From IMG/VR virus record IMGVR_UViG_3300041411_000304: DNA of 64,000 bases; one strand, written 5' to 3'. Under the pieces are notes generated by a model, which was not told the DNA's origin, ran no database searches, and saw nothing but the letters and a program-made list of their open reading frames with translations. Source of the DNA: an uncultured virus (IMG/VR IMGVR_UViG_3300041411_000304). Taxonomy: Duplodnaviria; Heunggongvirae; Uroviricota; Caudoviricetes. Shown here one piece after another: positions 7,640 to 59,545 of the stretch. Position 1 is the first letter of the stretch. Each line of letters begins with the position of its first letter. Made by a program: the position numbers and the translations under genes.

Positions 7640-8182
7640 ATGACCCAAGTGCCGAAACCCGAAGTAGTATCCATTGATGTGCCTGTGCTCGGTCTGTGCG
7701 TAGACGTTAACATGTCCCGATTCTGCCAGTATTTCCCACCTGCTGAGGCTCTGGTCTGGGACATCACAAACAACAAGTTCAAAGAAGCTTACCAAAGCTC
7801 CTGGCAACGCGAAGCTGTCGACCACGCAAACCGCATCATCGAGGTCTTCGCGGCGGCCACCCAGCTGGCAGAAGGCGAGTTGACCGAGGTGCGCGACCGT
7901 CTGGAGCTGGCGCAAGACCGTCTGGAATCGATGGAGCGTCACCAGGACTACTGGCGGAATGCCTATGCCGAGCACGGTGACGATGTAAACGGCAAGACCC
8001 AGGCGCTGCATGGCGCCAATTGCCAACTGTATGAGTTGCTGGGCGTATCTAATCAAACCGAGGCCGCCCTGCGAATTCGCGGCCTGATGGCCTTCGAGCG
8101 TGATGCACTCGGATGGCTGGAGGATACCAAAGAGGGCGTTTCCCGTCTGCTGGATCGTCCGAAGTATATCAGCGCTGGCTGA
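7640..8182 (+). CDS. hypothetical protein (coiled coil)
   Basis: Start MTQVPK after GAAAGGTG. Confidence 0.7.
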   Translation: MTQVPKPEVVSIDVPVLGLCVDVNMSRFCQYFPPAEALVWDITNNKFKEAYQSSWQREAVDHANRIIEVFAAATQLAEGELTEVRDRLELAQDRLESMERHQDYWRNAYAEHGDDVNGKTQALHGANCQLYELLGVSNQTEAALRIRGLMAFERDALGWLEDTKEGVSRLLDRPKYISAG

Positions 8183-8262
8183 ACCTTCTGCCTGCAGCCA
8201 AGGCGCGGTATAATCCCCAGCCGCGCCACCCACCAACTAGCCTCCAGCAAGAGGACACTTAT

Positions 8263-9054
8263 ATGAGCGTTTCCCACACACCAGTCACCGGGCGACTGCG
8301 CCGAATCCAAGAAGCCAGTGCCCGGAATATCCACAAGCGCCAGAAAGGCCCCGGCTATATCGAACCGACCCACGTGGTCAGCAAAGAGGTCGCGGCCTTT
8401 GTCAAACAAAACCTCAAAAACGGCCATCTATGGCTGCCGGCTGACCTGCTGATCGACCCGCGAGCGCCGATCACCCTCGGCTGCGTTGTGGCTGTGGTCA
8501 ACGAGGCTTCTGCCGAACCGGGCGCTGACGATATCGTCGGCATGTACCTAGGAGCCGTCAAGGGCCAAGGCAGCGGTCAACTGCGCGCCGTCATCGAGAC
8601 TGGCAGCTCCATCATTTACGTGCGCCCGGAGTTGATGAAGCGCATCAGCCGGGAGTTCGCGGACCTCTGGAACCCGAAGTGGATGCGACACCTGGGCCGT
8701 CGCATCCTCAAGAAGCTCAACCAGTGCGGCGTAATGCCCGGCGAAGAGGATAAGGTGCTGCACAGCATCCTCCGCCAAGTCATCTTTGATCGCAAATTCC
8801 TGGCCTGCGTTGATTCCGGTGCTGGGCTCAAGAATGCCGAATTTGCGGCCTTTGTCGCGCTGGACAACTGGGAGACGCGCGAAGATGACAACGCGCCAGG
8901 CAAATTCGTCGGATGGCGCTGCGCAAACCTTCTGATGAAATTCGGCTTCCCGGCTGGAAACCTTATGGGAGGATTCGTTAGCGCACTAAACGAATACCGT
9001 GATCTGCGCCTGAAGATCGAAGGCGTGATGCTGGCCAGCAAAGTGGAGTCCTGA
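8263..9054 (+). CDS. hypothetical protein
   Basis: Start MSVSHT after GAGGA; TATAAT upstream. Confidence 0.75.
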   Translation: MSVSHTPVTGRLRRIQEASARNIHKRQKGPGYIEPTHVVSKEVAAFVKQNLKNGHLWLPADLLIDPRAPITLGCVVAVVNEASAEPGADDIVGMYLGAVKGQGSGQLRAVIETGSSIIYVRPELMKRISREFADLWNPKWMRHLGRRILKKLNQCGVMPGEEDKVLHSILRQVIFDRKFLACVDSGAGLKNAEFAAFVALDNWETREDDNAPGKFVGWRCANLLMKFGFPAGNLMGGFVSALNEYRDLRLKIEGVMLASKVES

Positions 9055-9055
9055 A

Positions 9056-10357
9056 ATGACCATAAAGACTGATCAAAAGCCGTCCTACAGCCTCGTGCCG
9101 ACCAAGGCGACGGCCGACATGGTGCACGCCGGCATCGGCCACGCGCACGGCATCAGCTACGCGTCGGCCTGCGGCATCATCGAACGGGCCATAGCAGCAG
9201 CGCCGGAGGTCTTCCCTACCAAGCGGGCCGACCTGGACGAAATCGTGCGCCTTGCCCAAAAGCGTGGCGCCTCGGTGCTGTTCCTTGTGGAGCCGGACGC
9301 GCCGGGAATCGACAGCATGCTGGCTGCCGAGCACACCAGAAGCTTGCTAGCTGAAGTCTATGAATTGCGCCGGGAGAATAACCAGCTGCGCGCTGGCGTA
9401 GAAGGTACAGTGCCGGCCCACAAGTTCAACGGCCTGGTTCAGCACTGTAAGATGCTGGAGGATCGAGTGGCCAGTCTAAGTCGAGAGCTCAACCAAGTTC
9501 GCTACTACGAAGCCGGCAACACCTGGTTCTGGGAGCGCGAAGGTGAGAACAACCTGGACTCGTTGACCTGCCCAATCGTCATCCAGTCCCAGGACTTGCG
9601 GGAGTTGCTGGCGACGTCCGTGACTCCTGAGCTGGAGCAGGCCATCGGCGAGATGGCCAAAGGGCCGGAGATGAATCGCGCGCCCGTTGAAGTGGTTTCG
9701 AGAATTCTGGAATTCACGTACTGCAACTATCGTGGAGAGTGGTCGCGGCGAAAGGTAGTGCCGCGACTGATGACGTTCAAGTCCACTGAGTTCCACCCGG
9801 AGCCGCAATGGCTGCTGCAGGCGTTCGATGTTGATCGGGATGGCGTCCGCGACTTTGCCATGAAGGACATGTACTTTGACGAGGACTGTGAACCGGCAGA
9901 GCGTGGCCGTCTTGTCCGTGAATTGGACGTCGCCCTCAACGGTAAGGCCGGCGCTGCCAAACAGGCGAGTCTCTGCGATATCGTCGCGCAAGTCGTAAAA
10001 CTTATAGGAATGAGCGGCCTTCCGCACCTACTGGCTGATTTCCCACCTGCCAATGCCTCGGACATTCAAGCGGCCTTTTCCATCAAGGTGGAGAAGTTCA
10101 TCTGCCAACAGATCGGGCGCCAATGGTCCGCAGAAGGGATGTCCATCGAGTCTCTGATCAAAGACCTGGTCGATGCCAAATGGACTCCGCGCCTGCCATC
10201 CAACGTCCAGATCGTCAAAGAGTATGGCGGGCACCCAGGCATCAACTTGATCATCAATGGTCTACAAGACTTCCATCCGTTCCACTCGGCAAATCCCCAG
10301 CAAGCCCGACGCGCCAAGTTCCTTGCGGCGCTGGCAGGAATTGACATCAATGGCTAA
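9056..10357 (+). CDS. mosaic protein with central WYL-like domain
   Basis: FTYCNYRGEWSRRKVVP...QWLLQAFDVDRDGVRDFAMKDM matches the WYL pattern. Confidence 0.7.
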   Translation: MTIKTDQKPSYSLVPTKATADMVHAGIGHAHGISYASACGIIERAIAAAPEVFPTKRADLDEIVRLAQKRGASVLFLVEPDAPGIDSMLAAEHTRSLLAEVYELRRENNQLRAGVEGTVPAHKFNGLVQHCKMLEDRVASLSRELNQVRYYEAGNTWFWEREGENNLDSLTCPIVIQSQDLRELLATSVTPELEQAIGEMAKGPEMNRAPVEVVSRILEFTYCNYRGEWSRRKVVPRLMTFKSTEFHPEPQWLLQAFDVDRDGVRDFAMKDMYFDEDCEPAERGRLVRELDVALNGKAGAAKQASLCDIVAQVVKLIGMSGLPHLLADFPPANASDIQAAFSIKVEKFICQQIGRQWSAEGMSIESLIKDLVDAKWTPRLPSNVQIVKEYGGHPGINLIINGLQDFHPFHSANPQQARRAKFLAALAGIDING

Positions 10358-10514
10358 GTCCAAATCCATCAGCGAGATGACTGCCATAGAGCTTCTGTCG
10401 CACATCATCCATAGTCCGGAGTATCTAACCGATACATACTACATCAAAGAACGCTGGGAAATCGAGGCGCGTTATCAACAACTGCGTGACGAGGATTTGG
10501 ACGATGGAAAGTAA
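10350..10514 (+). CDS. hypothetical protein
   Basis: Small ORF overlapping both neighbours (MAKSKS start). Confidence 0.55.
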   Translation: MAKSKSISEMTAIELLSHIIHSPEYLTDTYYIKERWEIEARYQQLRDEDLDDGK

Positions 10515-11583
10515 CAAGCCTGCCCGTCTCGCAGTTGCAGAAGAGTTCCTGCGCCAGCTCCAGCACACCATCCCGGAGGACGAGCGGGTGATGGTCGGCT
10601 ATGCGGAGGAGGCCACCGTGCAGACAGACGCTAGCGGGAAGAAGGTCAATGCTGGCTGGTGGCCTGTGCCGTGGAAGGACGGCAAATATGTAAACTCGCG
10701 CTCCAACTGCTATGCCTGCATTTCGTCCTCGGTGAAGACTCCGAACCCGCGAACCGGTGAGATGCGCTATTGGCGAGGCGAGACCAGCTTTGGCCACGGA
10801 CTGGCCCTGATGGTGGACGATATCGGCGACGGCAAAGGCTCCAAGGGCGGACTCGGCCTGGACTTCTTTGAGCTCCGGCTGCCACCTACAGCCACCGTGG
10901 AGACGTCGCCGGGCAACTATCAGCTCTGGTATTTCTTCGATGAGCCGGTGGACTCGTTGCTCCACTTCAAGGCGCTGCTGAATTGCTTCGTGGCGAACGT
11001 GCTGAAGAAGGGCGGTGACAACACCATCAAGGACATTTCTCGCTTCGGGCGGATGCCCATCGGCTACAACAACAAGCGCGAAGGTCCAGACGGCAAGTTG
11101 AAGTATGCGATGGAGGACGGCAAGCCATTCCAGGTGCGCCTGGTCCACGCAGACTACTCGCGGCGCTACTCGCCAGAAGAGGTTGCCCGCCAGTTCGGCT
11201 TCTCCATCGTCCTGCCGCAGAAGCCGGCGCTGACCATCAACGAGGATGATTGGAAATTCGATCAAGTCTGGTTGAAGTATGCCGAGCGCATTTGCTCCAA
11301 GTTGCAGATGGGCGAAGGTTCGGGCGGCGAGGTTTCCATGAACATGTCCGGCAAATATCGCATCCGCTGTCCATGGGGCGATGAGCACACCAACGGCGAC
11401 CCATTCGGCGCCTACTTCCGTGGGCCGATCCCTGGTGCAGAGCATGAGTATGTGTTCGGTTGCGGTCACGATACCTGCCGCAAACTCCACAAGCGTACCT
11501 GGGCCGTCTTCATCGACGAAATCGTTATACCTTACATGGCCGATGCGTTAGAATCGATCAACCGAAAAGCAGCAGGAATCTGA
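10504..11583 (+). CDS. RepB-type (AEP) DNA primase with C-terminal Zn-binding motif
   Basis: MVDD, ETSPGNYQ, RFGRMP motifs; CPW..EH and CGH..C. Confidence 0.85.
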   Translation: MESNKPARLAVAEEFLRQLQHTIPEDERVMVGYAEEATVQTDASGKKVNAGWWPVPWKDGKYVNSRSNCYACISSSVKTPNPRTGEMRYWRGETSFGHGLALMVDDIGDGKGSKGGLGLDFFELRLPPTATVETSPGNYQLWYFFDEPVDSLLHFKALLNCFVANVLKKGGDNTIKDISRFGRMPIGYNNKREGPDGKLKYAMEDGKPFQVRLVHADYSRRYSPEEVARQFGFSIVLPQKPALTINEDDWKFDQVWLKYAERICSKLQMGEGSGGEVSMNMSGKYRIRCPWGDEHTNGDPFGAYFRGPIPGAEHEYVFGCGHDTCRKLHKRTWAVFIDEIVIPYMADALESINRKAAGI

Positions 11584-11585
11584 AC

Positions 11586-11792
11586 ATGAGCAAGACCGCA
11601 AGAATGTCCGTCAAAGTCGAAGTGGAGGTGGTCGTCGGCACATGGGATGCCAGTGCCACCTTCTCCAGCCTCCGCGAGCAGATCAAACGCGAGGCCCTGG
11701 GCAAGTTGAAGCGCGCCATAGCCGGTGACAACGAGGTCGCCATCACCAAAGTCACTGGCTATGGCGCTGCCATTTTGGATTCCGCAGAATGA
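11586..11792 (+). CDS. hypothetical protein
   Basis: ATG just after primase stop. Confidence 0.6.
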   Translation: MSKTARMSVKVEVEVVVGTWDASATFSSLREQIKREALGKLKRAIAGDNEVAITKVTGYGAAILDSAE

Positions 11793-13275: not shown

Positions 13276-14973
13276 ATGAACACAGAGGAACCGGGCGCCA
13301 GCAATGGCACTCACGATGATTCCGATATGTTCGACCTCTCGCTGATGACCGACGCTGGATTCAGTGAAGAGATGGAAGCCGCAGAAGAGGAAGCTGTACA
13401 GGTCGCGCTCAAGCTCAGCCATCGCGGCCACCGATCAGCGGTTGATGATGCTGAAATATACGCTGAGGCGAACCTAGCCAAGCGCGCCCGACGCCTCGCC
13501 CAGTTCGTGATCTTCAAGCACTTCAAGAAGGCTTCAAAGGTCAAGGATGAAGATGTTGGCCCGCAACCCGATCCATCCTCATCGCTAAACATGTACCTGG
13601 CCTTTGACGCCCTCTTTGATAAGGGCAGCGGCCGTGTGCCATTCCCGCACGTCGATACCTTCCGAGGCCGGCACGTCGATCATCGCGGCGAGCCAATCGA
13701 GAAGTTGATGGACACCCGCGAGATCGAAGAGGCCATGGACGAAATTGGCCTGGTGAACCCGCGACGGAAGATCGTCCAAGAGTGCTATGAGCAATGGGCG
13801 CTCACGCACTTCCACGACCCGATTCAACACTACATCAGGACCAAGACGCCCGACTGGGACGGCGTATCGCGCCTGGATGACTCGCTGATCAAATTGTTCC
13901 GCCCGAAGGACACGCCGCTGACCAGGCTGGTCAGTCGCTACTTCTGGTTGTCACTCTATCAACGCATCATGTTTCCTGGGACGCTGGCGCAACTCTCCAT
14001 CGCGCTGATCGGCGCCCAGGATGCGGGCAAGTCGTATTTCTCTCTGCTCCTTTGCCGCACCTTGATGGGCCAGCCGGACGTCCTCCCGACGCTGCTGGAC
14101 CTCGGGGCGAAGGACTACAAGGAATTTCTGCGCAACATCACCGGCCAGTCCATCATCGCCAACGTCGGTGAGATGACCGGTATGAAGCACGGCGACCTGA
14201 ACCGCATCAAGGAATTTGTTGCCAAGCCCGCAGACCAGTTTGACTACAAGTTTTTGTCCTCCAAGACCAAGCAGCGGCAATGGATCACCATCATGGATGG
14301 CAACGGCTACGATGGCCTGCAGCGCGACGACACCGGCAACAGGCGATTCTATCCGCTGTTCGTGTACCAGACTGAGGACGTCGAAGGCAAGCCGGCCTGG
14401 GAGAAGGGCGTCCGCATTGACTACTCTGAGTTTAAGCAGGACATCTGGCAGATCATGGCCGAGTGCCGCGACTGGGTTGCCGCGAACGGCTTCGATGGCT
14501 GGCTGGCACTCACCAAAGAGGTTAACCAGGGCGTGTCCGCCTTCTCCGAGTCAGAAATGAATAGTGCTCGTGGCGTGATCCGTGACGAGACGGTGGAGGG
14601 CGCCATCAAGCAAGTGCTGGTGAATTGCGATGTGTTCGACGTCGCGCCTCGCGGCACCAGCAAAGGCAAGTTCTTCATTGAGACCATGAACATGCTGGTC
14701 ATCTTTGATAAGCTCGCCAAGATCAAGACATTCCCGCGCGCCTTGACGCCTCACATGAAGGCCATGGGGTTCGAAGCGGCGCAGATCGGTTCGCGCGGCT
14801 GGGCGATGGACAAGGCCAAATTGATGGATTTGTATGGCATCGCGGAGCATGATTTGAGCGTCAGGGATATGCATCGCCACATCGCGGCGCACCACATCGA
14901 TGAAGAGTTGGATGTGGCCGATTTGGATATGATGGTGACTCGTTGGAAAACGACCGAAAGCGAGCGCTTCTGA
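13276..14973 (+). CDS. VapE/VirE-family P-loop helicase-like ATPase
   Basis: PDWDGVSRL, GAQDAGKS, DDTGNRRFYP. Confidence 0.85.
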   Translation: MNTEEPGASNGTHDDSDMFDLSLMTDAGFSEEMEAAEEEAVQVALKLSHRGHRSAVDDAEIYAEANLAKRARRLAQFVIFKHFKKASKVKDEDVGPQPDPSSSLNMYLAFDALFDKGSGRVPFPHVDTFRGRHVDHRGEPIEKLMDTREIEEAMDEIGLVNPRRKIVQECYEQWALTHFHDPIQHYIRTKTPDWDGVSRLDDSLIKLFRPKDTPLTRLVSRYFWLSLYQRIMFPGTLAQLSIALIGAQDAGKSYFSLLLCRTLMGQPDVLPTLLDLGAKDYKEFLRNITGQSIIANVGEMTGMKHGDLNRIKEFVAKPADQFDYKFLSSKTKQRQWITIMDGNGYDGLQRDDTGNRRFYPLFVYQTEDVEGKPAWEKGVRIDYSEFKQDIWQIMAECRDWVAANGFDGWLALTKEVNQGVSAFSESEMNSARGVIRDETVEGAIKQVLVNCDVFDVAPRGTSKGKFFIETMNMLVIFDKLAKIKTFPRALTPHMKAMGFEAAQIGSRGWAMDKAKLMDLYGIAEHDLSVRDMHRHIAAHHIDEELDVADLDMMVTRWKTTESERF

Positions 14974-15000: not shown

Positions 15001-15028
15001 GGGGCGTCCTTCGGGGCGCCTTATTTTT
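15001..15028 (+). terminator. rho-independent terminator
   Basis: GGGGCGTCC-TTCG-GGGCGCCTT then ATTTTT. Confidence 0.75.
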
Positions 15029-15049
15029 GTCCGCTGTTTGGTGAGCTTC

Positions 15050-15620
15050 GGAGTTATCCGATAAGTTGTTGTGTGGTTGGTTACTTGTTTGTGGTTGTTG
15101 GTTCGTGGTTTGTGTACGCTTGCCGCGTTTGGTCTGACTGTAAAGTGTGGATTTAGTGTCGACAACCAGTGTTAAGAGTTATCGGATAGCTATCCGATAT
15201 TTCTATCCGATAGGTTCCGAGGGGTTGGGTAGTTGCCGCGAGGGTGCGCCGGGTGTGGGTCTTGGAAACGAGCCGCGAAGTTTGCGGATAATCGGATAGC
15301 TTTTCGATTTTCGAACTTATTAAGAAATATATACGAACGACGCTAAACGTTAGCACGCAAACTAACACGTTTTCTCCTAACGGAATATATATGTATGTCT
15401 ATCCGATTATCCGATATATTTAGCGATATGAAATCCGAAACCCAGGCAGGGCGCGGCCTGCAGCCAACTCCAAACTTATCGGATGGCGCGGCCAGGCCTC
15501 AAATTCACATCGCATTAGCCGATAAGTTCCACGCAGCCCAGGCAGGGCGCGGCCTCCGCAATCGATCCACACAACCACAGCAATCAGCGGCCATGTACCA
15601 CAAACCACGCATCAGCAACA
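15050..15620. other. putative replication origin / cis element, copy 1
   Basis: Multiple TATCCGATA/TATCGGATA iterons; 15-bp inverted repeat 15285-15299/15399-15413 around AT-rich core; GT-rich left, CA-rich right. Confidence 0.55.
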
Positions 15621-15787: not shown

Positions 15788-16297
15788 ATGTCTGACGATT
15801 ATCTGCCAAACGCGAAAGACTTTGAAGACGAGAAGTTTGCGCTGATGAATACAGCATTCTTCGACAAATACATCAAGTTGCGTCTGGAGGGCGTCGGCTC
15901 CTATCGCGCATTTCGCCAGACCTTCGGTGACGATCTAATCGACGGCTTCACCACTTCTCGCATCTACGCGCTGGAGCGGAACCCGTATTTCACCAAGCAC
16001 TTCAAGCAGCGTTTCGACGTCATGAAGCCTGCGGATATGTGGTCGCCAAAGGTTTCCGTCTTCGAACTGCTCCAGATCGTGAAGGACGACATGAACAAGG
16101 CGACCAGCCGAATCTCGGCCATCAGAGAGTTGAACGTGCTCCTGGGCATCACAGTCATCGATGACCTCGGCAAGAGCAAGGTCAGCCGGTCGCTGGAGGA
16201 TTTCTACAAGGAGAATGGCGATGCAATCCAAGACGCTGTCGCCGGAGGGGACCAGGGCGAAATCCCAGCCCCAAACCCCACCCATACGACCCATTAG
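15788..16297 (+). CDS. terS: terminase small subunit
   Basis: Resembles recalled E217/PB1 TerS (RIYALERNPY, ELLQIVKD, SRISAIRELNVL, LEDFY). Confidence 0.85.
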   Translation: MSDDYLPNAKDFEDEKFALMNTAFFDKYIKLRLEGVGSYRAFRQTFGDDLIDGFTTSRIYALERNPYFTKHFKQRFDVMKPADMWSPKVSVFELLQIVKDDMNKATSRISAIRELNVLLGITVIDDLGKSKVSRSLEDFYKENGDAIQDAVAGGDQGEIPAPNPTHTTH

Positions 16298-16424
16298 ACA
16301 CACGGGCAGCCACTGCCTGGCCACGAACTGTGGTCAGGCTAGGCAAGGGTAGCGGGTCGCCCGACCGACCCACGGAAACGCCACTGCATTGGATCCACTC
16401 AGAGACGGAAACCGGAGCAAGGAT

Positions 16425-16796
16425 ATGGGAGCTTTAACGCAGATTTCGAAGGTCTTGGCGAGTGGAGACGATGGGTCGCTGCTCTTCGATTGCCCCGGTT
16501 GCGGGATGACCCACCAGGTCATGACGGGCGCCGGCTCCGGACCTCGCTGGGGATACAATGGCAATGCGGAAGCGCCGACCTTTACGCCATCGATTCTGGT
16601 GCGCTGGCATCAGTGGGAGCCTCCAGCATACGATCTGGAGATGGCCGAGCGGATTCGCCGTGGCGAGATAACGCAGGTCAAGGTGGAGAAGGTCTGCCAC
16701 TCCTTCGTGACCGATGGCCAAATCCAGTTCCTGGGCGATTGCACCCATGCTCTCGCTGGCCAGACGGTTCCGCTGAAGGAATGGGACTTGGACTGA
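16425..16796 (+). CDS. DUF6527-like protein, putative Ser-His peptidase
   Basis: CPGCG..H, W.YNG...PTFTPSI, CHSFVTDGQIQF motifs. Confidence 0.7.
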   Translation: MGALTQISKVLASGDDGSLLFDCPGCGMTHQVMTGAGSGPRWGYNGNAEAPTFTPSILVRWHQWEPPAYDLEMAERIRRGEITQVKVEKVCHSFVTDGQIQFLGDCTHALAGQTVPLKEWDLD

Positions 16797-16815: not shown

Positions 16816-16844
16816 AAAGGGCGCCCACCTGGAGCGCCCTTTTT
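16816..16844. terminator. bidirectional terminator between convergent genes
   Basis: AAAGGGCGC-CCACCTGGA-GCGCCCTTTTT. Confidence 0.75.
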
Positions 16845-16856
16845 GCTGCCTCGGAT

Positions 16857-17459
16857 TTACTCCTTGTCGGCGTTGGCTTCGAAGGCGCGGAACTCGTACA
16901 CGATGCCGTTGTGCTCGAAAGCCAGGGCGCCCTCCTCCTTCAGCTTCATGCGGAAGCGGATGTGCTTGGAATCCGGCAGGCCGAACTCTGCGAAGGCGGT
17001 GCGAACCGAACGGTGCTCTGTGGTCTTGCCGTTGACGGTGACGGTGACGTTATGGCGAGTCATCCGAGCAGCAGCCACCTCGGCATCGCCCCAGCTGGCA
17101 GCGATGGCTTTGCCGAGGTCTTTGGCCGGAGCGGTCTTGGCCTTCTCGCGCATCTGGCGCAGCTCGGCCAGCGCCTCTTCCTCGGTCACTTCTTCTTCCG
17201 GCTTGGCATCGGCAGCCGGGGCTTCTTCGGCCTTGGCTTTGGAAGCGTTGCGGGTCTTGTGGACCGGCAGATCGGTTTTGGCCACTTCCTCTTTTTCCGG
17301 CAGAGTGGCAACCAGGGCCAGGCAGCGACGTTCTGCGGTCTTGCGATCCGCGAACTTCTTGATGGTGGCGTCTGCGTTGTGGGCGTTCCAGAACTGAACC
17401 AGTTCCTTGGTGTCTACAGCGGTGATGTCGGCGCGGATGCGGGAGATGAGAGTGGCCAT
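16857..17459 (-). CDS. hypothetical (possibly DNA-binding) protein
   Basis: Start MATLIS; promoter TTGACG-17-GATAAT upstream. Confidence 0.75.
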   Translation of the reverse strand: MATLISRIRADITAVDTKELVQFWNAHNADATIKKFADRKTAERRCLALVATLPEKEEVAKTDLPVHKTRNASKAKAEEAPAADAKPEEEVTEEEALAELRQMREKAKTAPAKDLGKAIAASWGDAEVAAARMTRHNVTVTVNGKTTEHRSVRTAFAEFGLPDSKHIRFRMKLKEEGALAFEHNGIVYEFRAFEANADKE

Positions 17460-17600
17460 TTTCTGCGTTCCTCTTTCTGGGGTCTTTCGGTTGATCCGGC
17501 TTCTTGCCGGGAGTGAGGTCATTATCTATGAGCCTGTCCACACCGTCAACACCTTTTTGCAACTTTCTGCAAATAATGCATAGGTGCCGACGGGCGGTAG

Positions 17601-17846
17601 TCAAACAGACGACGAAATGGCGATGACGAAACCGGCCTCAGCAAAGTACGGCACCACACCCTTGTAGGCGATGGCAGTCGCGGCCAACTCCTGGCGCAGA
17701 GCCGACGAATTGGCCTTCACCCAGTCCAGGTATGCCACGGCGATGTCCTCCTCAGCCTTCTGCCAATCCTGGCCCATGCCGGTGAGCATGAATCCGAGTT
17801 CGATGCTGGAGACGGCGACGGTGATGATCATTGTTGACTGGGCCAT
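17601..17846 (-). CDS. small paralogue family member 1
   Basis: C-terminal YFAEAGFVIAI. Confidence 0.7.
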   Translation of the reverse strand: MAQSTMIITVAVSSIELGFMLTGMGQDWQKAEEDIAVAYLDWVKANSSALRQELAATAIAYKGVVPYFAEAGFVIAISSSV

Positions 17847-17849
17847 GGC

Positions 17850-18080
17850 TCAGCACTCCTGGATGACGATGCGATAGTGGCAACTCGCGAGATATCGCAG
17901 CACATTGTCGCGCGAATCGCGCGCCACCGAGTTTGCATAAGCCTGGCTGTAGCGCCGATGCGCTATTCTGACGACCTCTTCGGCCAGCAGATACACGGCC
18001 TCATCGTAATAGCGACCGGTGACAGAGAAGCCGATAGAGTCCGGAGAGTGCGCCAACTTGGCCTCGATTTTGATGGCCAT
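17850..18080 (-). CDS. small paralogue family member 2
   Basis: MAIKIEAK...FSVTG...YLASCHYRIVI. Confidence 0.7.
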   Translation of the reverse strand: MAIKIEAKLAHSPDSIGFSVTGRYYDEAVYLLAEEVVRIAHRRYSQAYANSVARDSRDNVLRYLASCHYRIVIQEC

Positions 18081-18325
18081 TACGCAGCCTCCGAGATGTG
18101 GATTTCGTATCCGCTCTGGATGAGGTAGACGAAGGGGTTGGCGCCGGATGCCGGCCAGATGGAATCGAGGACTTCGCAGAACTCGTCATTGCTCTTGTGC
18201 TTGGCAGCCCAGTCTTCGATCTGCTGGGCCAGCTCACGGTTGACCTTGTCTCGCGGGCAAGTCACCTCAAAGATGATCTCTTTGTCCGGGAGGACTTTGA
18301 TGGCGCGCACTTGGAGTATTGGCAT
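18080..18325 (-). CDS. small paralogue family member 3
   Basis: FEVT...YLIQSGYEIHI. Confidence 0.7.
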   Translation of the reverse strand: MPILQVRAIKVLPDKEIIFEVTCPRDKVNRELAQQIEDWAAKHKSNDEFCEVLDSIWPASGANPFVYLIQSGYEIHISEAA

Positions 18326-18385
18326 GGTTGGATGCTCCTTGGAAGTGAACGACCAGCCTGGCGCGGCTGGTCGTTCTGGGTCAGA

Positions 18386-18613
18386 TCAGAGGTTGTAGAT
18401 GGAGACGTCGAAGCCGTTGTAGGCCAGCCAGTCGATCAGACCGACCATACTCAGCGAGCGCATCTGGAAAGCATATTCGCTATCCTCAAAGACGGACTTG
18501 ATCCAGTCCTCAACGTCCATCTGCATCTTGACGCGAGCGCTTGCGATATTGCTGGCGGTGACTTCAAAGTGAACGTTGGCCATTTCGGCGTTCTTGGCTA
18601 CGATCTTGATCAT
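18386..18613 (-). CDS. small paralogue family member 4
   Basis: MIKIVAKNA...FEVT...WLAYNGFDVSI. Confidence 0.75.
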   Translation of the reverse strand: MIKIVAKNAEMANVHFEVTASNIASARVKMQMDVEDWIKSVFEDSEYAFQMRSLSMVGLIDWLAYNGFDVSIYNL

Positions 18614-18760
18614 GGCTTTCTGGTCCTTTCAACTTGGTAGGCGCCTCTCGCCTCCCAGTGAACAGAGTATCGCCTATCTCACAAATGGCAGGCAACAACT
18701 ATTTCAGCAGAATTATCGGACGGAATGAGGCGCCCCGGATTCCTCCGAGGCGCCTGGCCG

Positions 18761-18988
18761 TCACTCGTTGGTGATGGTGATGTCGTAGCCGGCGTCAGCC
18801 AGGGTGCCGAGGATGCCGCGATCATCGACCAGGCCCATCAGGCAGGTGTATTCGTGGTTGGAGATTTCGACGCTGGCCCACTGGTCAACGATCATGAAGA
18901 GGTGAGCTTCAGCACCGATGAAGTCCGGGCCGCTGGCTTCGAACTCACGGGACTCTTTGGCGTTCTTGGCGGTGATCTTGGTGGTCAT
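18761..18988 (-). CDS. small paralogue family member 5
   Basis: MTTKITAKNA...FEASG...LADAGYDITI. Confidence 0.75.
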   Translation of the reverse strand: MTTKITAKNAKESREFEASGPDFIGAEAHLFMIVDQWASVEISNHEYTCLMGLVDDRGILGTLADAGYDITITNE

Positions 18989-19132
18989 CTTTCTGATCCT
19001 TTCTGGTTCTGGTCAGCTTTATTGCCTTCCAGTGGACATAGTATCGCGCTCCCAGGAATGGAAGGCAACATTTATTTCAGCAGAATCGAGAGAAAGTTGA
19101 AGGCGCCCGAATCGCTCCGGGCGCCTGGTCGA

Positions 19133-19387
19133 TCATTCCTTGTAGACGTCGATGGCAAGACTGAAGCCGTCGCGCACAAGCCAGGACACGGCGCCCATGG
19201 CGGTCATCTCATCCAGCATCTCGTCATACGACTCGTTGTCGGTGCAATTCTCATTGAGGAACTCATCTACAACGTCATACAGGCGCTTGACGGCCTCTTC
19301 ATAGTCCTGGCCAACGACGTCGAAAACGGCGACGACTTGCGGGTGGGTGCCCTCGGTCATCTTGGAAGCGGTGATTTTGACTGGCAT
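19133..19387 (-). CDS. small paralogue family member 6
   Basis: MPVKITAS...FDVVGQDYEEA...WLVRDGFSLAI. Confidence 0.75.
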   Translation of the reverse strand: MPVKITASKMTEGTHPQVVAVFDVVGQDYEEAVKRLYDVVDEFLNENCTDNESYDEMLDEMTAMGAVSWLVRDGFSLAIDVYKE

Positions 19388-19474
19388 CTTTCTGGTCCTT
19401 TCTAGCCTGGAGGCGGAATGCCTTCCAGTGGACATAGTATCGCCTGGCTAAAAGTGGAAGTCAAGCGCCCTGGA

Positions 19475-19726
19475 TCAAAAGGACTTGGCCGGGTGATATC
19501 CGATGCTGAAGGAGTAGCGGAGGTCAAAGAGAAACCCCATCACGCCATCGCGCTCAATGGACTTAACCGCGTGGTCCATGCCAATGTCATCGTACTGGGT
19601 CTGCAAATGACGGAGGACTTCTAAGCGCAACTGCTCTTCTGCCTCTTTGAGCGTCTGGCCCTCGGAATTGTAACTGGCAGACGTCTCGTGTGGGCCGCGA
19701 GCCTCTATGCTGATGTTGAGTTTCAT
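19475..19726 (-). CDS. small paralogue family member 7
   Basis: ISIEAR...EGQTLKEA...FLFDLRYSFSI. Confidence 0.65.
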   Translation of the reverse strand: MKLNISIEARGPHETSASYNSEGQTLKEAEEQLRLEVLRHLQTQYDDIGMDHAVKSIERDGVMGFLFDLRYSFSIGYHPAKSF

Positions 19727-20017
19727 GACGTTCATTCCGATTGGTTGAAGTGGAGTGAATAGCACCAGACCGCCCGTCCGCCAATCCTTCTGACATTACC
19801 GGAACGGCCCAGCGCGACTGAAGCCCGATTGCGGCCTGGCGTCAAGTGCCGGCCTCCATACCATGAACGCCCGCATCCGTTTGGGCGATCCGGACACTGG
19901 CAGCTATATGCGCCTTGGGTGCCCGCCTCGATGATCGACGGGAAGCGCCTGCCTGATGTCCGACCTAGTCAGTAGCTGGCGCTGACCATCCATGCGTCGC
20001 GGTCCTGCTGGTGCCGA

Positions 20018-26037: not shown

Positions 26038-26206
26038 TTTCTTTCTCCGGGGCTTTCTGGTGGAAGTGAGGCTAGTATGCCGAAGCTCAGAATGGACGGC
26101 AACAATTATTTCACCTGAATGTTTATGAAGCCGACGAAAGGCAACATAGAACGTGGTGCGCCAGCCAGGTATACTCCGGCCAAAGCCTTATAGTTTGGAA
26201 GCCTCA

Positions 26207-27592
26207 ATGTTCCAATTGAACCCGTTCCTCAAACAGTTCTGGCGCACTAAAAGCCGGTACAAAGTCCTCTATGGAGGCCGCGCCAGCTCCAAGTCTCACG
26301 ACGCGGCTGGCATCGCCGTCTACCTGGCCGCCAACTTCACTTTGAAGTTTCTTTGTGCTCGCCAGTTCCAGAACCGTATCAGCGAATCTGTGTACACTCT
26401 GATCAAGGACAAGATCGAAAATTCAGAGTATCGTGGCGAGTTCCACATCACCAAAAACTCGATTATCCACAAGCGGACGCGCAGCGAATTCCTTTTCTAC
26501 GGTATTGCCAGGAACCTATCTGAGATTAAATCGACGGAAGGCGTCGACGTCCTCTGGCTGGAAGAGGCGCACTATCTTACCAAAGAGCAGTGGGAGGTGA
26601 TTGAGCCGACAATCCGTAAAGAGGGGTCGGAAATCTGGATCATCTTCAACCCGAATGAAATGGCAGACTTCGTCTACCAGCGCTTTGTGGTCGCGCCTCC
26701 ACCAAACACCGTCGTGAAGATGATCAACTGGAACGCAAACCCGTTCCTCAGCGAGACGATGCTGGATGTTATCCGTCACGCGTACATCGAAAACGACGAA
26801 GACGCACAGCACATCTACGGCGGCCAGCCAAAGACGGGTGGCGACCTATCCGTCATCAACCTCAAGTTCATCCTGGCTTCGCTGGATGCCCACATCAAGT
26901 TGGGCTGGGAGCCTGCCGGGCAGAAGCGTATCGGCTTCGACGTCGCGGACGATGGCCGAGACAAGAACGCCACCACCTATGCCCACGGCAACGTGCTTAT
27001 GGAGGTCGATGAGTGGGCCGGCTTGGAGGATAAGTTGCTGCAGTCATCTTCTCGCGTCTGGAACCTGGCCCGCGAGAAGGGCGCCAGCGTGACCTATGAC
27101 TCTATTGGCGTCGGCGCCCACGTCGGGTCGAAGTTCTCGGAGTTGAACGATGAGCATGGATCCAAATTCAAGCTTCCGTATGACCCATTCAACGCTGGCG
27201 GAGCGGTGATGGACCCGGATGCGATATTTATGAAGCTTCCGCACACCGAAATCACCAACAAAGACTATTTCTCGAACATCAAGGCGCAGATGTGGGTGGA
27301 CGTCGCAACCCGGTTCCGCAAGACCTATGAGATGATAGAGCACGGCAAGGTCTATCCGTTCGATGAGCTGATATCCATCAACACCGCGACCATTCCGAAG
27401 GACAAGCTAAACCAGCTCTGCCTGGAACTCGCGGCGCCTCGCAAAGACCTGGACAAGAACGGTCGCTACAAGGTCGAATCCAAGGACGATATGCGCGACA
27501 AGCGCGGCATCCAGTCACCGAACATCGCAGACTCCGCCATCATGGCGTTGGTCAAGCCGAAGCGGAAGCCTGCTGGGTTCTTCGACTTCTAA
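26207..27592 (+). CDS. terL: terminase large subunit (PBSX/Terminase_3 family)
   Basis: YGGRASSKS, WLEEA, IIFNP; nuclease GFDVAD and SPNIADS. Confidence 0.95.
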   Translation: MFQLNPFLKQFWRTKSRYKVLYGGRASSKSHDAAGIAVYLAANFTLKFLCARQFQNRISESVYTLIKDKIENSEYRGEFHITKNSIIHKRTRSEFLFYGIARNLSEIKSTEGVDVLWLEEAHYLTKEQWEVIEPTIRKEGSEIWIIFNPNEMADFVYQRFVVAPPPNTVVKMINWNANPFLSETMLDVIRHAYIENDEDAQHIYGGQPKTGGDLSVINLKFILASLDAHIKLGWEPAGQKRIGFDVADDGRDKNATTYAHGNVLMEVDEWAGLEDKLLQSSSRVWNLAREKGASVTYDSIGVGAHVGSKFSELNDEHGSKFKLPYDPFNAGGAVMDPDAIFMKLPHTEITNKDYFSNIKAQMWVDVATRFRKTYEMIEHGKVYPFDELISINTATIPKDKLNQLCLELAAPRKDLDKNGRYKVESKDDMRDKRGIQSPNIADSAIMALVKPKRKPAGFFDF

Positions 27593-34054: not shown

Positions 34055-34193
34055 TTTGAAGCTCCTTGTATTAACTCACGCAACTCGGTCGTGTACATAT
34101 GCAATGTGACCTTAACAGAAATGTGATTGCCCTGTGTGGAGGTCACACAATATACTAGCCACAAGTCTCAGCCCAATAAACATGGAACCAAAC

Positions 34194-37489: not shown

Positions 37490-37900
37490 AGTTGTCTGCT
37501 TGGCATTCGTTGTGACGTTGTTCTAGTGTTAAGAGTTATCGGATAACTTCCCAGGAGGTTATCCGATAATTTATCCGATAAGTTTGCACACCTAGTGCCG
37601 CGTGCGTTTGCTGGGAAGTTATCGGATAATCGGATAGAGTTGCAATTTTCGCAAGCTTTACGGAAATATATAAGACTCTTCCATTTAGTGTACTAGTCCT
37701 GAAATATTTCTCCTAACGTATTCAAATGCAATATCTATCCGATTATCCGGGAAGTATTAGCGATTGAATCGCAGACCCCTTGCGGCAGTAAGGCCGAACA
37801 CAACTCCAGACCCATCGCATGGACTTCCCGGATAGCTTGCGGCAAATTATCCGATAACTTCGCCACTCTTCCCGTCCAATACACGACGCGCGGCAATGCC
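37490..37900. other. putative replication origin / cis element, copy 2
   Basis: Same iterons as 15050-15620; 16-bp inverted repeat 37623-37638/37734-37749. Confidence 0.55.
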
Positions 37901-56456: not shown

Positions 56457-58874
56457 ATGGCACTCCTGACTCCTGATCTGATCCAAGCAACATTCGCATC
56501 TGGCGGCGAGAAAGACACGCCGCCGCAACTCTCCCCGCAAGGCTTCGTGAACTTCACCGAAGGATACACGCCATTCTATGAGATGCGACTGGATGCCGGC
56601 CAGCCGCAAGCCAAGGCGGTTGAGCGGAAGGTCCAGAACTACATGTTCAACCAGGCCACCCTGCATGCCAAAGCTTGGCAATCGGCCTGCATTCCGCCGT
56701 GGTACGCCGGAATGCCCGGAGGCTACGCCAAGAATGCCATTGTCATCCACGAGATTGCCGGTGTGGCCACCCCGTTTCGTTCGTTGGTCGCCGGCAACGT
56801 TACCACTCCCGGCTCAGCTCCGACTCAGTGGGAATATGTTCAGACCGTCTCGGAGATGATTCAAAACATCCCGATGCCGTCTGGCGGCGCGACTACTGCT
56901 ATGGCATCGGCAGGCATCATTGCCACCGGAGGGGCGGCATACGATCCTCTGACGCTCCCTCGCGGAACATACATGTACTCCAACAATGCCGCTGCCGCTG
57001 CCACGCCGAATTTGCCAAAGGACATTCACACCGCTGCACCATCGGCGCTCGCTGGCATTCTGGAGGTGTGCACAGCAAGCGCCGTCGCAGGCGTCAAAAT
57101 ACTTCGATACGTGGACATGCTTGGCAACGTATACATCCTGCCGAGCGGCTCAACAACTTGGGTGCAATACACCAACTATGGAATCCTTCAGGCGCAGAAA
57201 CCGACTTTTGCATTGACGGCATCGACCACTACCAACAACTATCTGGCCAACTTGACGCCAGCCCCTGCTGCCCTGACAGATGGCATGGAAGTTCGACTGC
57301 GGATGCACGCAAGCAACACCGGCGCATCGACACTTAATTTGAATAACCTTGGTGCCAAGACAATTCTGGGGCAGGCCTTCCAGGCACTCTCCGGTTCCGA
57401 GATGCTGATTGGACGCAACGTGACTCTGCGTTGGACGCCGACGTCTGATGCCTGGGTCATCATCAATGCGACGTCTCGTCTCCAGGTTAACGATGCCATT
57501 GCCGATAACCATGTACCGAGCTGGAAGCAAGTCAAGGACTATGTCGCTACAGAAGTGGTCATCGACTGGGACGAAGTCCAGAACAAGCCGGACGTCGTCA
57601 TCAACAAGAACGCGGCCACCTTGTCCACTCTTTTGTTGAACCGGAATCCTGGTGGCGCCAACCCGGCCATATCTTGGCGCAACACTGATGGCGGATTAAC
57701 CAGGTTTTCCGAGTCTCTGATTGACGACAACACCATTCGTCTTGCAACACAAGCTGTGGTCCTGCGAGAGTACACGCAAACCACAGTAGACTACAAGGCG
57801 ATAACGTTTTTTCAACAAGGAATCCGCTGCACACAAACCACAAACGGCATGATCCGTTTCCTGGCAAGCGATGGACAGACAGCCAGGTACTTGTTTACCA
57901 GCAACGACACCGCCATGTACTTCTATGGCTATGATGATGCTGCCGCTGCTCAATTGATATATACGGCAAACAGACACACCCAAGTGATGGCGTTCTCCAA
58001 ACGCCCGACCTTTGAAGGGGTCGTTCCTTGGGACGAGAACAACCTGGCCATGACTGGCGCTATCTCGGCGTTTAGCCACAGCTCGCCAGGCGGCGGCTGG
58101 TTGTTCTGTGATGGTTCTGCAGTTTCGCGAACCACCTACGCGGCATTGTTTGCGAAGATTGGCACGACCTTTGGTGCCGGCAACGGATCAACAACGTTCA
58201 ACGTGCCTGACCTGCGTGGCCAGTTCGTGCGAGGTGTAGATGCCGGCAGAGGGCTTGATCCGAGTCGCGTACTCGGCTCCTCGCAAAGTTTCGCGATGCA
58301 ATCGCACAGCCACACGGCGACGGCCTCCAATGCTGGCACGCACGACCACACGGCGACGGCGCTTGCCGCTGGCAGCCACACCCATACTACAACGGTTTCC
58401 ACGGACGGAATCCACACCCACACTGCAAGCACCGGCGATGCCGGCGCACACACCCACACCGTCTCCGGCACTTCCGGAACAACTAACACTTCTCGGTTCT
58501 CTTCTGCCATCCAGCAAGGTGGTTCTGCGGCGAGCATCACCGTTCCTGCCAGCGGCCAGTCCACCACAGGCGTTATGTGCGACGGCCAGTCCGTATCTGG
58601 TCCTTTCGGTATCTACTTCACCAACACGCTGGAAGGTCACGCGCACTCCATAAGCGCCACTGCTGCTTCGAACGGCACCCACGACCACACTGTGTCCATT
58701 GCAAACAGCACCGGCCACACCCATACCGTCACCAACTCGACCATTGGCAACCACCAACACACGGTCGATGTAGACGTTGGCGGCGACCACGCCCACACCA
58801 TCGTAGTCAATGCCAACGGCTCCACCGAGACGCGCCCGACCAACGTGGCCCTTCACTACTTCATCCACATCTAA
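56457..58874 (+). CDS. tail fibre with collar domain and HxH metal-binding needle
   Basis: GWLFCDGS, FNVPDLRGQFVRG, ten HxH motifs, ETRPTNVA. Confidence 0.9.
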   Translation: MALLTPDLIQATFASGGEKDTPPQLSPQGFVNFTEGYTPFYEMRLDAGQPQAKAVERKVQNYMFNQATLHAKAWQSACIPPWYAGMPGGYAKNAIVIHEIAGVATPFRSLVAGNVTTPGSAPTQWEYVQTVSEMIQNIPMPSGGATTAMASAGIIATGGAAYDPLTLPRGTYMYSNNAAAAATPNLPKDIHTAAPSALAGILEVCTASAVAGVKILRYVDMLGNVYILPSGSTTWVQYTNYGILQAQKPTFALTASTTTNNYLANLTPAPAALTDGMEVRLRMHASNTGASTLNLNNLGAKTILGQAFQALSGSEMLIGRNVTLRWTPTSDAWVIINATSRLQVNDAIADNHVPSWKQVKDYVATEVVIDWDEVQNKPDVVINKNAATLSTLLLNRNPGGANPAISWRNTDGGLTRFSESLIDDNTIRLATQAVVLREYTQTTVDYKAITFFQQGIRCTQTTNGMIRFLASDGQTARYLFTSNDTAMYFYGYDDAAAAQLIYTANRHTQVMAFSKRPTFEGVVPWDENNLAMTGAISAFSHSSPGGGWLFCDGSAVSRTTYAALFAKIGTTFGAGNGSTTFNVPDLRGQFVRGVDAGRGLDPSRVLGSSQSFAMQSHSHTATASNAGTHDHTATALAAGSHTHTTTVSTDGIHTHTASTGDAGAHTHTVSGTSGTTNTSRFSSAIQQGGSAASITVPASGQSTTGVMCDGQSVSGPFGIYFTNTLEGHAHSISATAASNGTHDHTVSIANSTGHTHTVTNSTIGNHQHTVDVDVGGDHAHTIVVNANGSTETRPTNVALHYFIHI

Positions 58875-58882
58875 GGTTGAAT

Positions 58883-59545
58883 ATGGCAAAGTTAACGCAA
58901 AACATCATAGTGGTCGGCTGTGGCGCTACGGCGCTGCTAGCCGGCAAGTGGCTGGAGCCCTTACAGGTTGCCTGCGATGAGTTCAAAATCGTTACGGCGA
59001 ACCGCGTTGGGGCCTTCCTGGCCAACGTTGGGGTGGAGTCCGGCGGCCTGGTATCTCTGGTTGAATCGTTGTACTATACCGACCCGGTGCGAGTGGCCAA
59101 GATTTTCCGGTCGTCTATGGATATCAACAACAACAAGGTCGTGGATGAGGCTGACATTGAGTTCGCCAAACAATACATCCGCAACAGCGAGAAGATGGCC
59201 AACCGGGTCTATGCGAACCGGATGGGCAACGGCAACGAGGCCAGCGGTGATGGGTTCCGCTATCGTGGGCGCGGCGCGATGCAGACGACCGGTCGCGAGA
59301 ACTACGCCAAAGCGGGAAAAGCCCTGGGCGTGGACCTCATTGGAAACCCGGACCTGCTGACGCGACCGGACGTCGCCGCCAGATCAGCTGCGTACTTCTT
59401 CCAGAGCAACGGCTGCAACGAGATGGCAGACGGCAACCAAATCTCCCGGATCGTCCAGACCATCAATGGTGCGCTGCCCAACGCCAACAACCACGGCCCG
59501 CTTCGTTTGGAGCGGTATCACAAAGTAAGGCAGATGCTTGCCTGA
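58883..59545 (+). CDS. endolysin, GH19 chitinase-like
   Basis: AFLA..VES, ANRVYANRMGNG, YRGRGAMQTTGRENY, ING. Confidence 0.92.
   Translation: MAKLTQNIIVVGCGATALLAGKWLEPLQVACDEFKIVTANRVGAFLANVGVESGGLVSLVESLYYTDPVRVAKIFRSSMDINNNKVVDEADIEFAKQYIRNSEKMANRVYANRMGNGNEASGDGFRYRGRGAMQTTGRENYAKAGKALGVDLIGNPDLLTRPDVAARSAAYFFQSNGCNEMADGNQISRIVQTINGALPNANNHGPLRLERYHKVRQMLA

Follow-up and report, generated by a model that had tools for sequence, protein, structure and literature searches.

The DUF6527 gene and its product

In this study we analyzed a DNA stretch of 64,000 nucleotides from an uncultured Caudoviricetes virus (IMG/VR record IMGVR_UViG_3300041411_000304), hereafter called the window, and focused on a BubE-like DUF6527 gene located on the plus strand at positions 16425..16796. 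The reading frame opens with an ATG at 16425, closes with a TGA at 16794-16796 and encodes a protein of 123 amino acids (aa) which belongs to a phage-type branch of the family. Together with terS, the upstream gene for the small terminase subunit, it forms a rightward two-gene unit with terminator-like elements at both ends. Most often, members of this phage branch are wired into a lysis cassette, between the genes for an endolysin and a spanin.

A sequence-only reading of the window had described DUF6527 as a Ser-His peptidase for ubiquitin-like proteins (Ubls) encoded in bacterial Bub operons. This was borne out by the available part of a study in which DUF6527 is described as BubE and found in all 544 catalogued Bub operons (10.1101/2024.11.21.623953). 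According to this source, BubE is a peptidase and isopeptidase which removes conjugates between BubA and its targets in cells, where both Ser and His are required, and its in vitro activity is very weak and restricted to the cognate Ubl. For BubE a compact beta-sandwich that includes a C4 zinc site (C57/C59/C61/C99) is predicted, the authors detected no structural relative, and the BubE of Citrobacter sp. RHBSTW-00271 has an invariant S92-H102 pair. A hydrophobic N- or C-terminal extension was suggested to bring BubE to membranes. Moreover, the Ubls of such systems are described as highly diverse, no Bub operon has so far been shown to give protection against phages, and the available part of the work makes no mention of DUF6527 copies in phages (10.1101/2024.11.21.623953).

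The window protein matched DUF6527 (PF20137) above the curated Pfam cut-off (E 1.7e-13; 50.7 bits versus a cut-off of 23.6), and no other Pfam family exceeded its own cut-off. A match to the function-less phrog_3362 extended over nearly the full length (E 8.5e-39). The family membership assigned by the sequence-only reading is thus confirmed, and the motifs on which it was based are all present, namely CPGCGMTH at residues 23-30, PTFTPSI at residues 51-57 and CHSF at residues 91-94. Since 84 residues (19-102) are placed on 60 positions of PF20137 (3-62 of 63), the window protein must contain an insertion. This variable segment (residues 62-88; positions 16608..16688, plus strand) includes a helix at residues 71-78 and is absent in BubE as well as in phage forms of 103-105 aa.

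In order to compare individual residues we used an alignment of 19 rows, comprising 8 phage-type or intermediate and 11 Bub-type sequences (10 from Bub operons plus the variant L094), and a larger set of 267 phage-type sequences. Over the 19 rows, invariant columns were limited to C23, C26, P55, S56 and H92. The serine of the PS motif, S56 (codon 16590..16592, plus strand), aligns with the catalytic serine of BubE in 19 of 19 rows and was found in 267/267 phage-type sequences. Likewise, H92 of the C91-H92 pair (codons 16695..16700, plus strand) aligns with the catalytic histidine, and both residues were present in all 267 sequences. The Ser and His of the postulated dyad are therefore retained throughout the phage-type set. 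We regard S56 and H92 as the equivalents of S92 and H102 because the BubE motifs CxCGCG, PS[IV] and CxxH[YF]W fit the published residue numbers, a correspondence that rests on published motifs and numbering and not on the Citrobacter sequence itself.

A further motif, D105-C106-T107-H108 (codons 16737..16748, plus strand), belongs to the phage-type branch alone and is absent in the BubE rows. Here, D105 was found in 267/267 and H108 in 266/267 sequences, and C106 in 248/267 with Ser in the other 19; G98 was present in 267/267. As S56, C91, H92 and D105 are all retained in 267/267 sequences, strong purifying selection seems to act on this catalytic-looking set. The zinc knuckle C23-P-G-C26-G-M-T-H30 (codons 16491..16514, plus strand) contains the two cysteines that are invariant in phage-type and BubE rows. 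C23, C26 and H30 were each found in 263 of the 267 sequences, the rest being gaps save for single substitutions at C26 and at H30. Regarding the zinc ligands, C23 and C26 align with the BubE knuckle and C91 adjoins H92; candidates for the fourth ligand are H30, C106 and H108. The knuckle is preceded by 22 residues, H108 is followed by 15 residues, and the window protein shows neither a hydrophobic nor a signal segment, its highest Kyte-Doolittle value for any 19-mer being 0.63.

Lysis cassettes as the usual context of relatives

The neighborhood of related genes was examined in two samples. The first one comprised the best 80 of 303 relatives from bacterial genomes, for which upstream and downstream open reading frames (ORFs) were called with respect to strand by our own script and scanned against PHROGs, whose names are annotations and not assays. 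In this sample the gene directly upstream encoded an endolysin, lysozyme or transglycosylase in 53 of the 80 loci; 22 had an upstream gene of other or no known function that was not recognisably muralytic, and 5 had no upstream ORF. For a random phage gene an endolysin directly upstream is expected in about 1 in 50 cases. The upstream endolysins span at least 13 PHROG families (181, 90, 7, 15649/938, 873, 894, 669, 315, 5867, 3513, 17001, 4067 and 1259), which indicates that the pairing either arose many times or survived many endolysin swaps.

Directly downstream, an Rz-like spanin gene was found in 21/80 loci and an endolysin gene in 2/80. Other downstream genes encoded the small terminase subunit (L002), the large terminase (L027), the portal (L054), neck, baseplate and HNH proteins, and products of unknown function. 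Among the 74 downstream ORFs, 40 start with a hydrophobic segment; these comprise 19 of the 21 spanins as well as several ORFs whose start is lipobox-like or holin-like. Besides, four-base stop/start overlaps of the ATGA type were common on both sides of the DUF6527 gene. The two closest bacterial relatives (L001 and L003; 61-62% identity) show the order endolysin, DUF6527, spanin.

Similar results were obtained for the second sample, which consisted of the best 80 of 571 confirmed relatives from viral contigs, with neighbors classified by BLAST against the labelled first sample. At least 51/80 loci had an endolysin-like gene upstream and at least 25/80 a spanin-like gene downstream; part of the viral contigs may duplicate prophages already included in the first sample. 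Among phages, the DUF6527 gene of Pseudomonas phage Haddon overlaps the end of the endolysin gene, and in Aeromonas phage ST4 a holin gene, an endolysin gene and three ORFs are followed by DUF6527. We also considered the unassigned gene located between endolysin and spanin in Pseudomonas phage MD8 (PMC8508860), which encodes 52 aa and is not a DUF6527 protein.

Fusion proteins were searched among 16 longer homologues. One carried an Rz domain, one a DUF2514 domain and 14 of 16 no second Pfam domain; no endolysin, E1, E2 or Ubl domain was fused to DUF6527 in this set. The Rz fusion (P0274; 4 member sequences on 2 contigs) consists of DUF6527, a hydrophobic segment and the Rz domain (PF03245; E 4.6e-8), an arrangement which would put its DUF6527 part at the inner membrane, facing the cytoplasm. 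Among the long representatives, four had no second Pfam domain and one was a tandem DUF6527. We give the fusions little weight because several look like neighboring ORFs that were run together. In the tandem form (P0155; 312 aa) a low-complexity linker joins the two DUF6527 domains.

Relationship to BubE and distribution of the phage-type branch

To place the phage-type proteins next to their operon-borne relatives, we searched 401 Pseudomonadota genomes with the Pfam model of DUF6527 and found matches in 18. These fell into two score classes, one of 71-93 bits without the insertion and one of 34-55 bits. The high-scoring BubE class was present in 10 and the clear phage-type class in 3 of the 401 genomes. 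Therefore, we dropped the idea that the phage branch outnumbers BubE. For 17 loci from the genome search the operon context was examined by Pfam. Six high-scoring loci adjoin DUF6791-ThiF fusions (Type II Bub), a number that includes one locus (L093) in a genome that was reached via another locus, and four adjoin Multi_ubiq/Prok-E2_E and JAB-ThiF genes (Type I Bub). At L094 (G177:C167; ORFs 7992-8399, 8390-9895 and 9871-11715) the DUF6527 gene lies beside a kinase-like gene and a ThiF E1 gene; the kinase-like protein gave APH/TCAD9 matches below the cut-off, and the locus resembles a Bub variant with a kinase.

A quick maximum-likelihood tree of 57 rows placed ten BubE sequences and one intermediate beyond a branch of length 3.96 (support of 93 in the Shimodaira-Hasegawa-like approximate likelihood ratio test), where, according to a warning of the tool, long branches meet at the split between BubE and the phage type. 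The window protein belongs to a well-supported set of 13 that includes proteins of Aeromonas phage ST4 and Pseudomonas phage Haddon. On the BubE side of the tree we observed a protein of 98 aa (L092; G361:C1, ORF 7899-8192) that combines a BubE-like CPCGCG knuckle with a phage-like W.WNG motif and has no E1 gene among the neighbors scanned. It may represent an intermediate stand-alone form.

The phage-type branch is large. At E<=1e-3, 5,519 of 5,527 candidate clusters (90% identity) were retained. At 50% identity there were 4,370 representatives, 1,677 of which matched at E<=1e-10. A tblastn search yielded 303 phage records. Among the matches listed, the closest was Aeromonas phage ST4 (67% identity), and the carriers were mostly phages of Salmonella, Klebsiella, Escherichia and Dickeya with genomes of about 150-160 kb, in addition to temperate phages of Aeromonas, Rhodobacter, Pseudomonas, Rhizobium and Burkholderia and jumbo phages of Erwinia. 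Weaker relatives of lower identity were found in two Arthrobacter phages. The GenBank labels 'ammonia monooxygenase' and 'anaerobic dehydrogenase' are unsupported, as DUF6527 was the sole Pfam family above its cut-off. We also observed phage-type DUF6527 in three assemblies labelled as Actinobacteria (L012 and L022, Gordonia sp.; L008, Streptomyces, on a contig of 440 nucleotides). In this group the neighbors are a Pseudomonas-like endolysin and an Rz spanin, and the labels look like mislabelling or contamination and not like a true Gram-positive host.

Predicted fold and complex

AlphaFold2, run with an alignment of 134 rows, predicted seven strands and one helix located in the insertion (mean predicted local distance difference test value 94.6; predicted template modelling score 0.82). 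The model shows a compact, beta-rich domain of small size, which would be held together by a putative cysteine/histidine zinc site. No relative was detected by a sequence search of the PDB (best E 0.38) or by Foldseek against the PDB at E<=1e-3. VIA-align against 48,161 chains likewise gave no solved relative, the best Z being just 4.0. The three BFVD matches at E<=1e-3 all belong to the DUF6527 family itself. After removal of PF20137, the ESM Atlas contained one unnamed cluster of 48 aa at 0.85, which is below the useful range. We also predicted a complex of the Type II BubA of Rhodobacter capsulatus (L093:6496-6753), a phage-type DUF6527 protein from a prophage of the same genome (L027) and zinc; this gave a median of 0.47 and a value of 0.33 for one unrelated control, which speaks neither for nor against binding.

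Genomic surroundings in the window

The window derives from a lytic myovirus that is distantly like the Pseudomonas PB1-type phages; DNA similarity to these amounts to 75% and extends over no more than 8% of a query of 15 kb. A PHROGs map built on 73 window ORFs shows replication genes up to 14973, the large terminase gene at 26153-27592, portal at 34134, capsid at 40056, sheath at 43766, tail fibre at 56457 and endolysin at 58577-59545. The position immediately downstream of terS, which the sequence-only reading had stated, was corroborated, as the gene at 15788..16297 (plus strand; 169 aa; phrog_4783), the first of the two genes in the unit, encodes a protein that matched the PDB chain 7uxe_A, 'Small terminase', with E 3.8e-40 and 140.8 bits over residues 3-165. 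Homologues of terS occur in 359 phage records, mostly from PB1-like Pseudomonas phages; among the matches listed they are mostly annotated as hypothetical, and the label 'terminase small subunit' appears in 1 of 40 rows.

In front of the DUF6527 gene a Shine-Dalgarno-like stretch, GGAGCAAGGA, can be read from the sequence at 16414..16423 (plus strand), 2 bases 5' of the ATG. An in-frame TTG at 16389 was considered as an alternative start codon and is unlikely because relatives begin at the same methionine as the ATG at 16425. The VapE-like primase gene (13276-14973), upstream of the gap before terS, is closed by a terminator-like hairpin with T-run at 15001..15032 (plus strand), in which a stem of 9 pairs at 15001-15022, called by the consensus scan alone, is followed by ATTTTTGT. 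Past the DUF6527 gene, a strong hairpin with an A-tract on its 5' side and a T-tract on its 3' side (16816..16845) lies between this gene and a convergent gene on the minus strand (16857-17522). Its folding energy is -21.7 kcal/mol (z -2.73), which was equalled by 3 of 200 shuffles, and the genes beyond it are oriented leftward. It is likely a two-way terminator that ends the terS-DUF6527 unit.

The 0.8-kb gap 5' of terS contains nine near-palindromes resembling TATCCGATA (15055..15524). The only other cluster of such sites in the window comprises seven sites (37537-37856) 5' of the genes for head protease, scaffold and capsid. At no more than one mismatch, TATCCGATA gave 31 strand-hits compared with 4.6 expected, and 31 was reached in 0/100 shuffles. 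Probably these sites are bound by a phage regulator or belong to a class of promoters, and their distribution suggests a shared late control of the terS unit and the head-gene operon.

The sequence-only reading had described the DUF6527 gene as standing alone. In agreement with this, neither E1 (ThiF) nor E2 (Prok-E2_E or DUF6791), Ubl (Multi_ubiq) or JAB domains were found by PHROGs and Pfam among 127 window ORFs scanned by one or both (PHROGs, 73 + 4 ORFs; Pfam, 50 + 4 ORFs), whereas the 10 reference Bub loci do show E1/E2/Ubl partners. In a PB1-like relative an HNH endonuclease gene on the opposite strand follows terS in place of DUF6527, and the PB1-like phages identified here are absent from the DUF6527 tblastn matches listed (120 row entries of 303 records). 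Therefore, the gene is probably a lineage-specific addition. The nearest virus record, a fragment of 27.9 kb (G001), has no DUF6527 match. The sequence cluster of the window protein has 4 members, the longest contig among their sources measuring about 72 kb.

Regarding the further surroundings, terS and the large terminase gene (26153-27592) are nearly 10 kb apart, with a leftward block of small genes between them; the order primase, terS, leftward block is shared with PB1-type phages. This block of early-looking genes is opened by an array of seven tandem small genes on the minus strand (17601-19765). Their products of 75-100 aa can be aligned with one another from end to end and share the pattern M.IKI.A...F.V.G...A...L...V..W...S..EY...G...LA..GY.I.I, which identifies them as diverged paralogs; they had no PHROG or Pfam match.

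A possible role in lysis and release

We propose that phage-type DUF6527 is a peptidase which is made late, works in the cytoplasm and belongs to the programme of lysis and release, a reading to which we assign a probability of roughly 40%. The S56-H92 pair would make the window protein an active peptidase, as in BubE, and the enzyme would act late and in the cytoplasm, at the end of the infection cycle, when the cell is lysed and virions are released. We do not regard it as a specialised antagonist of Bub systems. The usual home of the gene would be inside the lysis cassette, where it would be translationally coupled between the endolysin and spanin genes. In the PB1-like phage of the window, with its scattered lysis genes, it would have moved behind terS. 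We infer catalysis, late timing, the cytoplasmic site and the role in lysis from sequence data. A cytoplasmic location would be expected because the putative zinc site is rich in cysteines and a signal sequence is lacking. A late timing, which the sequence-only reading had considered probable as well, would fit the strand and unit in common with terS and the TATCCGATA cluster, which recurs only before the head-gene operon. Virulent phages commonly scatter their lysis genes. Therefore, the arrangements in the window and in the large virulent phages neither contradict nor support a role in lysis.

Several observations weigh against this proposal. The window gene itself is not part of a lysis cassette, its neighbors being terS and a terminator, and the endolysin gene (58577-59545) is 42 kb away. 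In the Kuttervirus record examined (Ackermannviridae) the gene lies among topoisomerase and DexA-type exonuclease genes, and in RcapMu it is found between large terminase and portal. Moreover, a recognisable muralytic gene upstream is missing in 22/80 bacterial loci, in addition to the 5/80 without an upstream ORF, and the 80 loci, chosen as those that matched the query best, are related by descent and thus not independent. The two Arthrobacter phages among the matches listed add to this, as Arthrobacter is a Gram-positive host and its phages have no spanins. Finally, BubE, the only relative that has been assayed, acts on a ubiquitin-like protein according to the available part of the source (10.1101/2024.11.21.623953).

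In a more specific form of the proposal, phage-type DUF6527 would be a fourth, so far unrecognised type of factor by which Gram-negative hosts are lysed, a zinc-stabilised Ser-His(-Asp) peptidase or isopeptidase that is made with the endolysin. We consider this form rather unlikely. Two variants are conceivable. The enzyme could act on the cytoplasmic side of the inner membrane, where the processing of a lysis protein would set the timing of lysis, or it could leave the cytoplasm via the holin lesion and cleave a covalent link in the envelope. If this applied, the BubE deconjugase would be related to a lysis enzyme that is widespread among phages.

Alternative explanations

A different role would follow from the homology to BubE. 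In this explanation, the core of which the sequence-only reading had put forward, the phage protein is a counter-defence deconjugase that binds the C-terminal beta-grasp of the host BubA, or perhaps BilA, and late in infection uses S56/H92 to strip the Ubl from virion proteins or to destroy the free modifier. BubE removes BubA-target conjugates in a Ser- and His-dependent manner (10.1101/2024.11.21.623953), the dyad is retained in all 267 phage-type sequences compared, and the gene stands without E1, E2 or Ubl genes, all of which would fit a deconjugase. The same applies to the late-gene neighborhoods, which match the time of virion-protein synthesis, and to one genome of Rhodobacter capsulatus that contains a phage-type copy together with a Type II Bub operon. 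Furthermore, matches of the BubE type were found in 4 of 50 genomes that carry the phage type compared with 10 of 401 sampled Pseudomonadota (odds ratio 3.4), a difference that is borderline (Fisher p 0.058) and without control for genome size or taxon.

Nevertheless, the protection against phages that such a countermeasure presupposes has not yet been attributed to any Bub operon, and the very weak in vitro activity of BubE was limited to the cognate Ubl, as stated in the available part of the source (10.1101/2024.11.21.623953). The phage branch is just 14-24% identical to BubE, from which it is separated by the branch of length 3.96, and lacks the hydrophobic extension conserved in BubE. An identity of about 40-67% across phages of very different hosts would be unusual for an arms-race gene directed against diverse Ubls, as would its presence throughout the Ackermannviridae records among the matches listed. 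Above all, the coupling with endolysin and spanin genes is left unexplained; lysis cassettes are the dominant context of close relatives, which indicates a role other than Ubl stripping. Therefore, we regard a deconjugase as improbable.

Least probable, to our mind, is a protease or zinc-binding adaptor with another target, neither lysis nor Ubl (e.g. morphogenesis or packaging, or a conserved host protein), whose place beside lysis or terminase genes would merely mark a module boundary where late accessory genes accumulate: packaging-gene contexts do recur (terS in the window and at L002, large terminase at L027, portal at L054, and RcapMu), the Kuttervirus copy lies among DNA-metabolism genes, the longer forms have varied partners without a common theme (14/16 without a second Pfam domain) and the fold has no solved relative by Foldseek (none at E<=1e-3) or VIA-align (best Z 4.0), but endolysin adjacency in 53/80 and at least 51/80 loci, at least 13 endolysin families and overlapping codons are far above the expectation for a module boundary, and the invariant Ser, His and Asp favor catalysis over a purely structural role.

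Taken together, homology would point to a peptidase that recognises a beta-grasp tail, and context to a product that is made, and perhaps works, with the lysis proteins. Known so far are the Pfam family DUF6527 and the function-less phrog_3362. As far as our searches reach, the phage-specific branch, its motifs and its home in lysis cassettes have not been described; no report on DUF6527/PF20137 in phages was found in the literature searched, and searches on lysis cassettes gave nothing relevant. So far, BubE is the only member of DUF6527 to have been characterised. The family includes a large, well-conserved phage branch which keeps the catalytic residues and has left the ubiquitin-like operon. 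If these proteins act in lysis, they would add a new component to a pathway that is thought to be well mapped. If they are deconjugases, they would represent a response of phages to ubiquitin-like immunity and indirectly support an antiviral role of Bub systems.

Comparison with known systems

BubE and the window protein are alike in their Pfam family, the serine of the PS motif, the histidine and a cysteine knuckle that can be aligned with CxCxC, and both are small beta-rich domains without a solved structural relative. However, they differ in several respects besides their low identity of 14-24%. The CxCxC of BubE corresponds to CxxC...H in the phage type, and the cysteine three residues before the histidine in BubE (CxxH) is replaced by a cysteine directly before it (CH). 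The phage type has an invariant D-C-T-H motif, located past the last long strand, and often an insertion of 20-27 residues (27 in the window protein), neither of which is found in BubE, whereas the hydrophobic terminal extension and the E1/E2/Ubl neighbors are found in BubE and not in the phage type. The two also differ in their Pfam scores, with 42-55 bits for the phage type versus 75-93 bits for BubE from operons.

If the counter-defence explanation applied, possible functional analogues would be the JAB/JAMM deconjugases, i.e. Cap3 of Type II CBASS (cyclic oligonucleotide-based antiphage signalling system) and BilC of Bil, which detach a modifier from its target (10.1101/2024.11.21.623953). 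These enzymes are metalloproteases, and they are unrelated to the Ser-His protein in both fold and chemistry. For a role in lysis, accessory lysis genes offer analogies without sequence relation, either in their slot between endolysin and spanin genes, as with P2 lysA, or in a role as non-essential extra enzyme or timing factor, as with mycobacteriophage LysB. In P2, lysA is flanked by the endolysin gene K on one side and by the spanin genes lysB/lysC on the other. Its product is a membrane protein and mycobacteriophage LysB an esterase, whereas the window protein would be soluble and is a putative zinc-binding protein.

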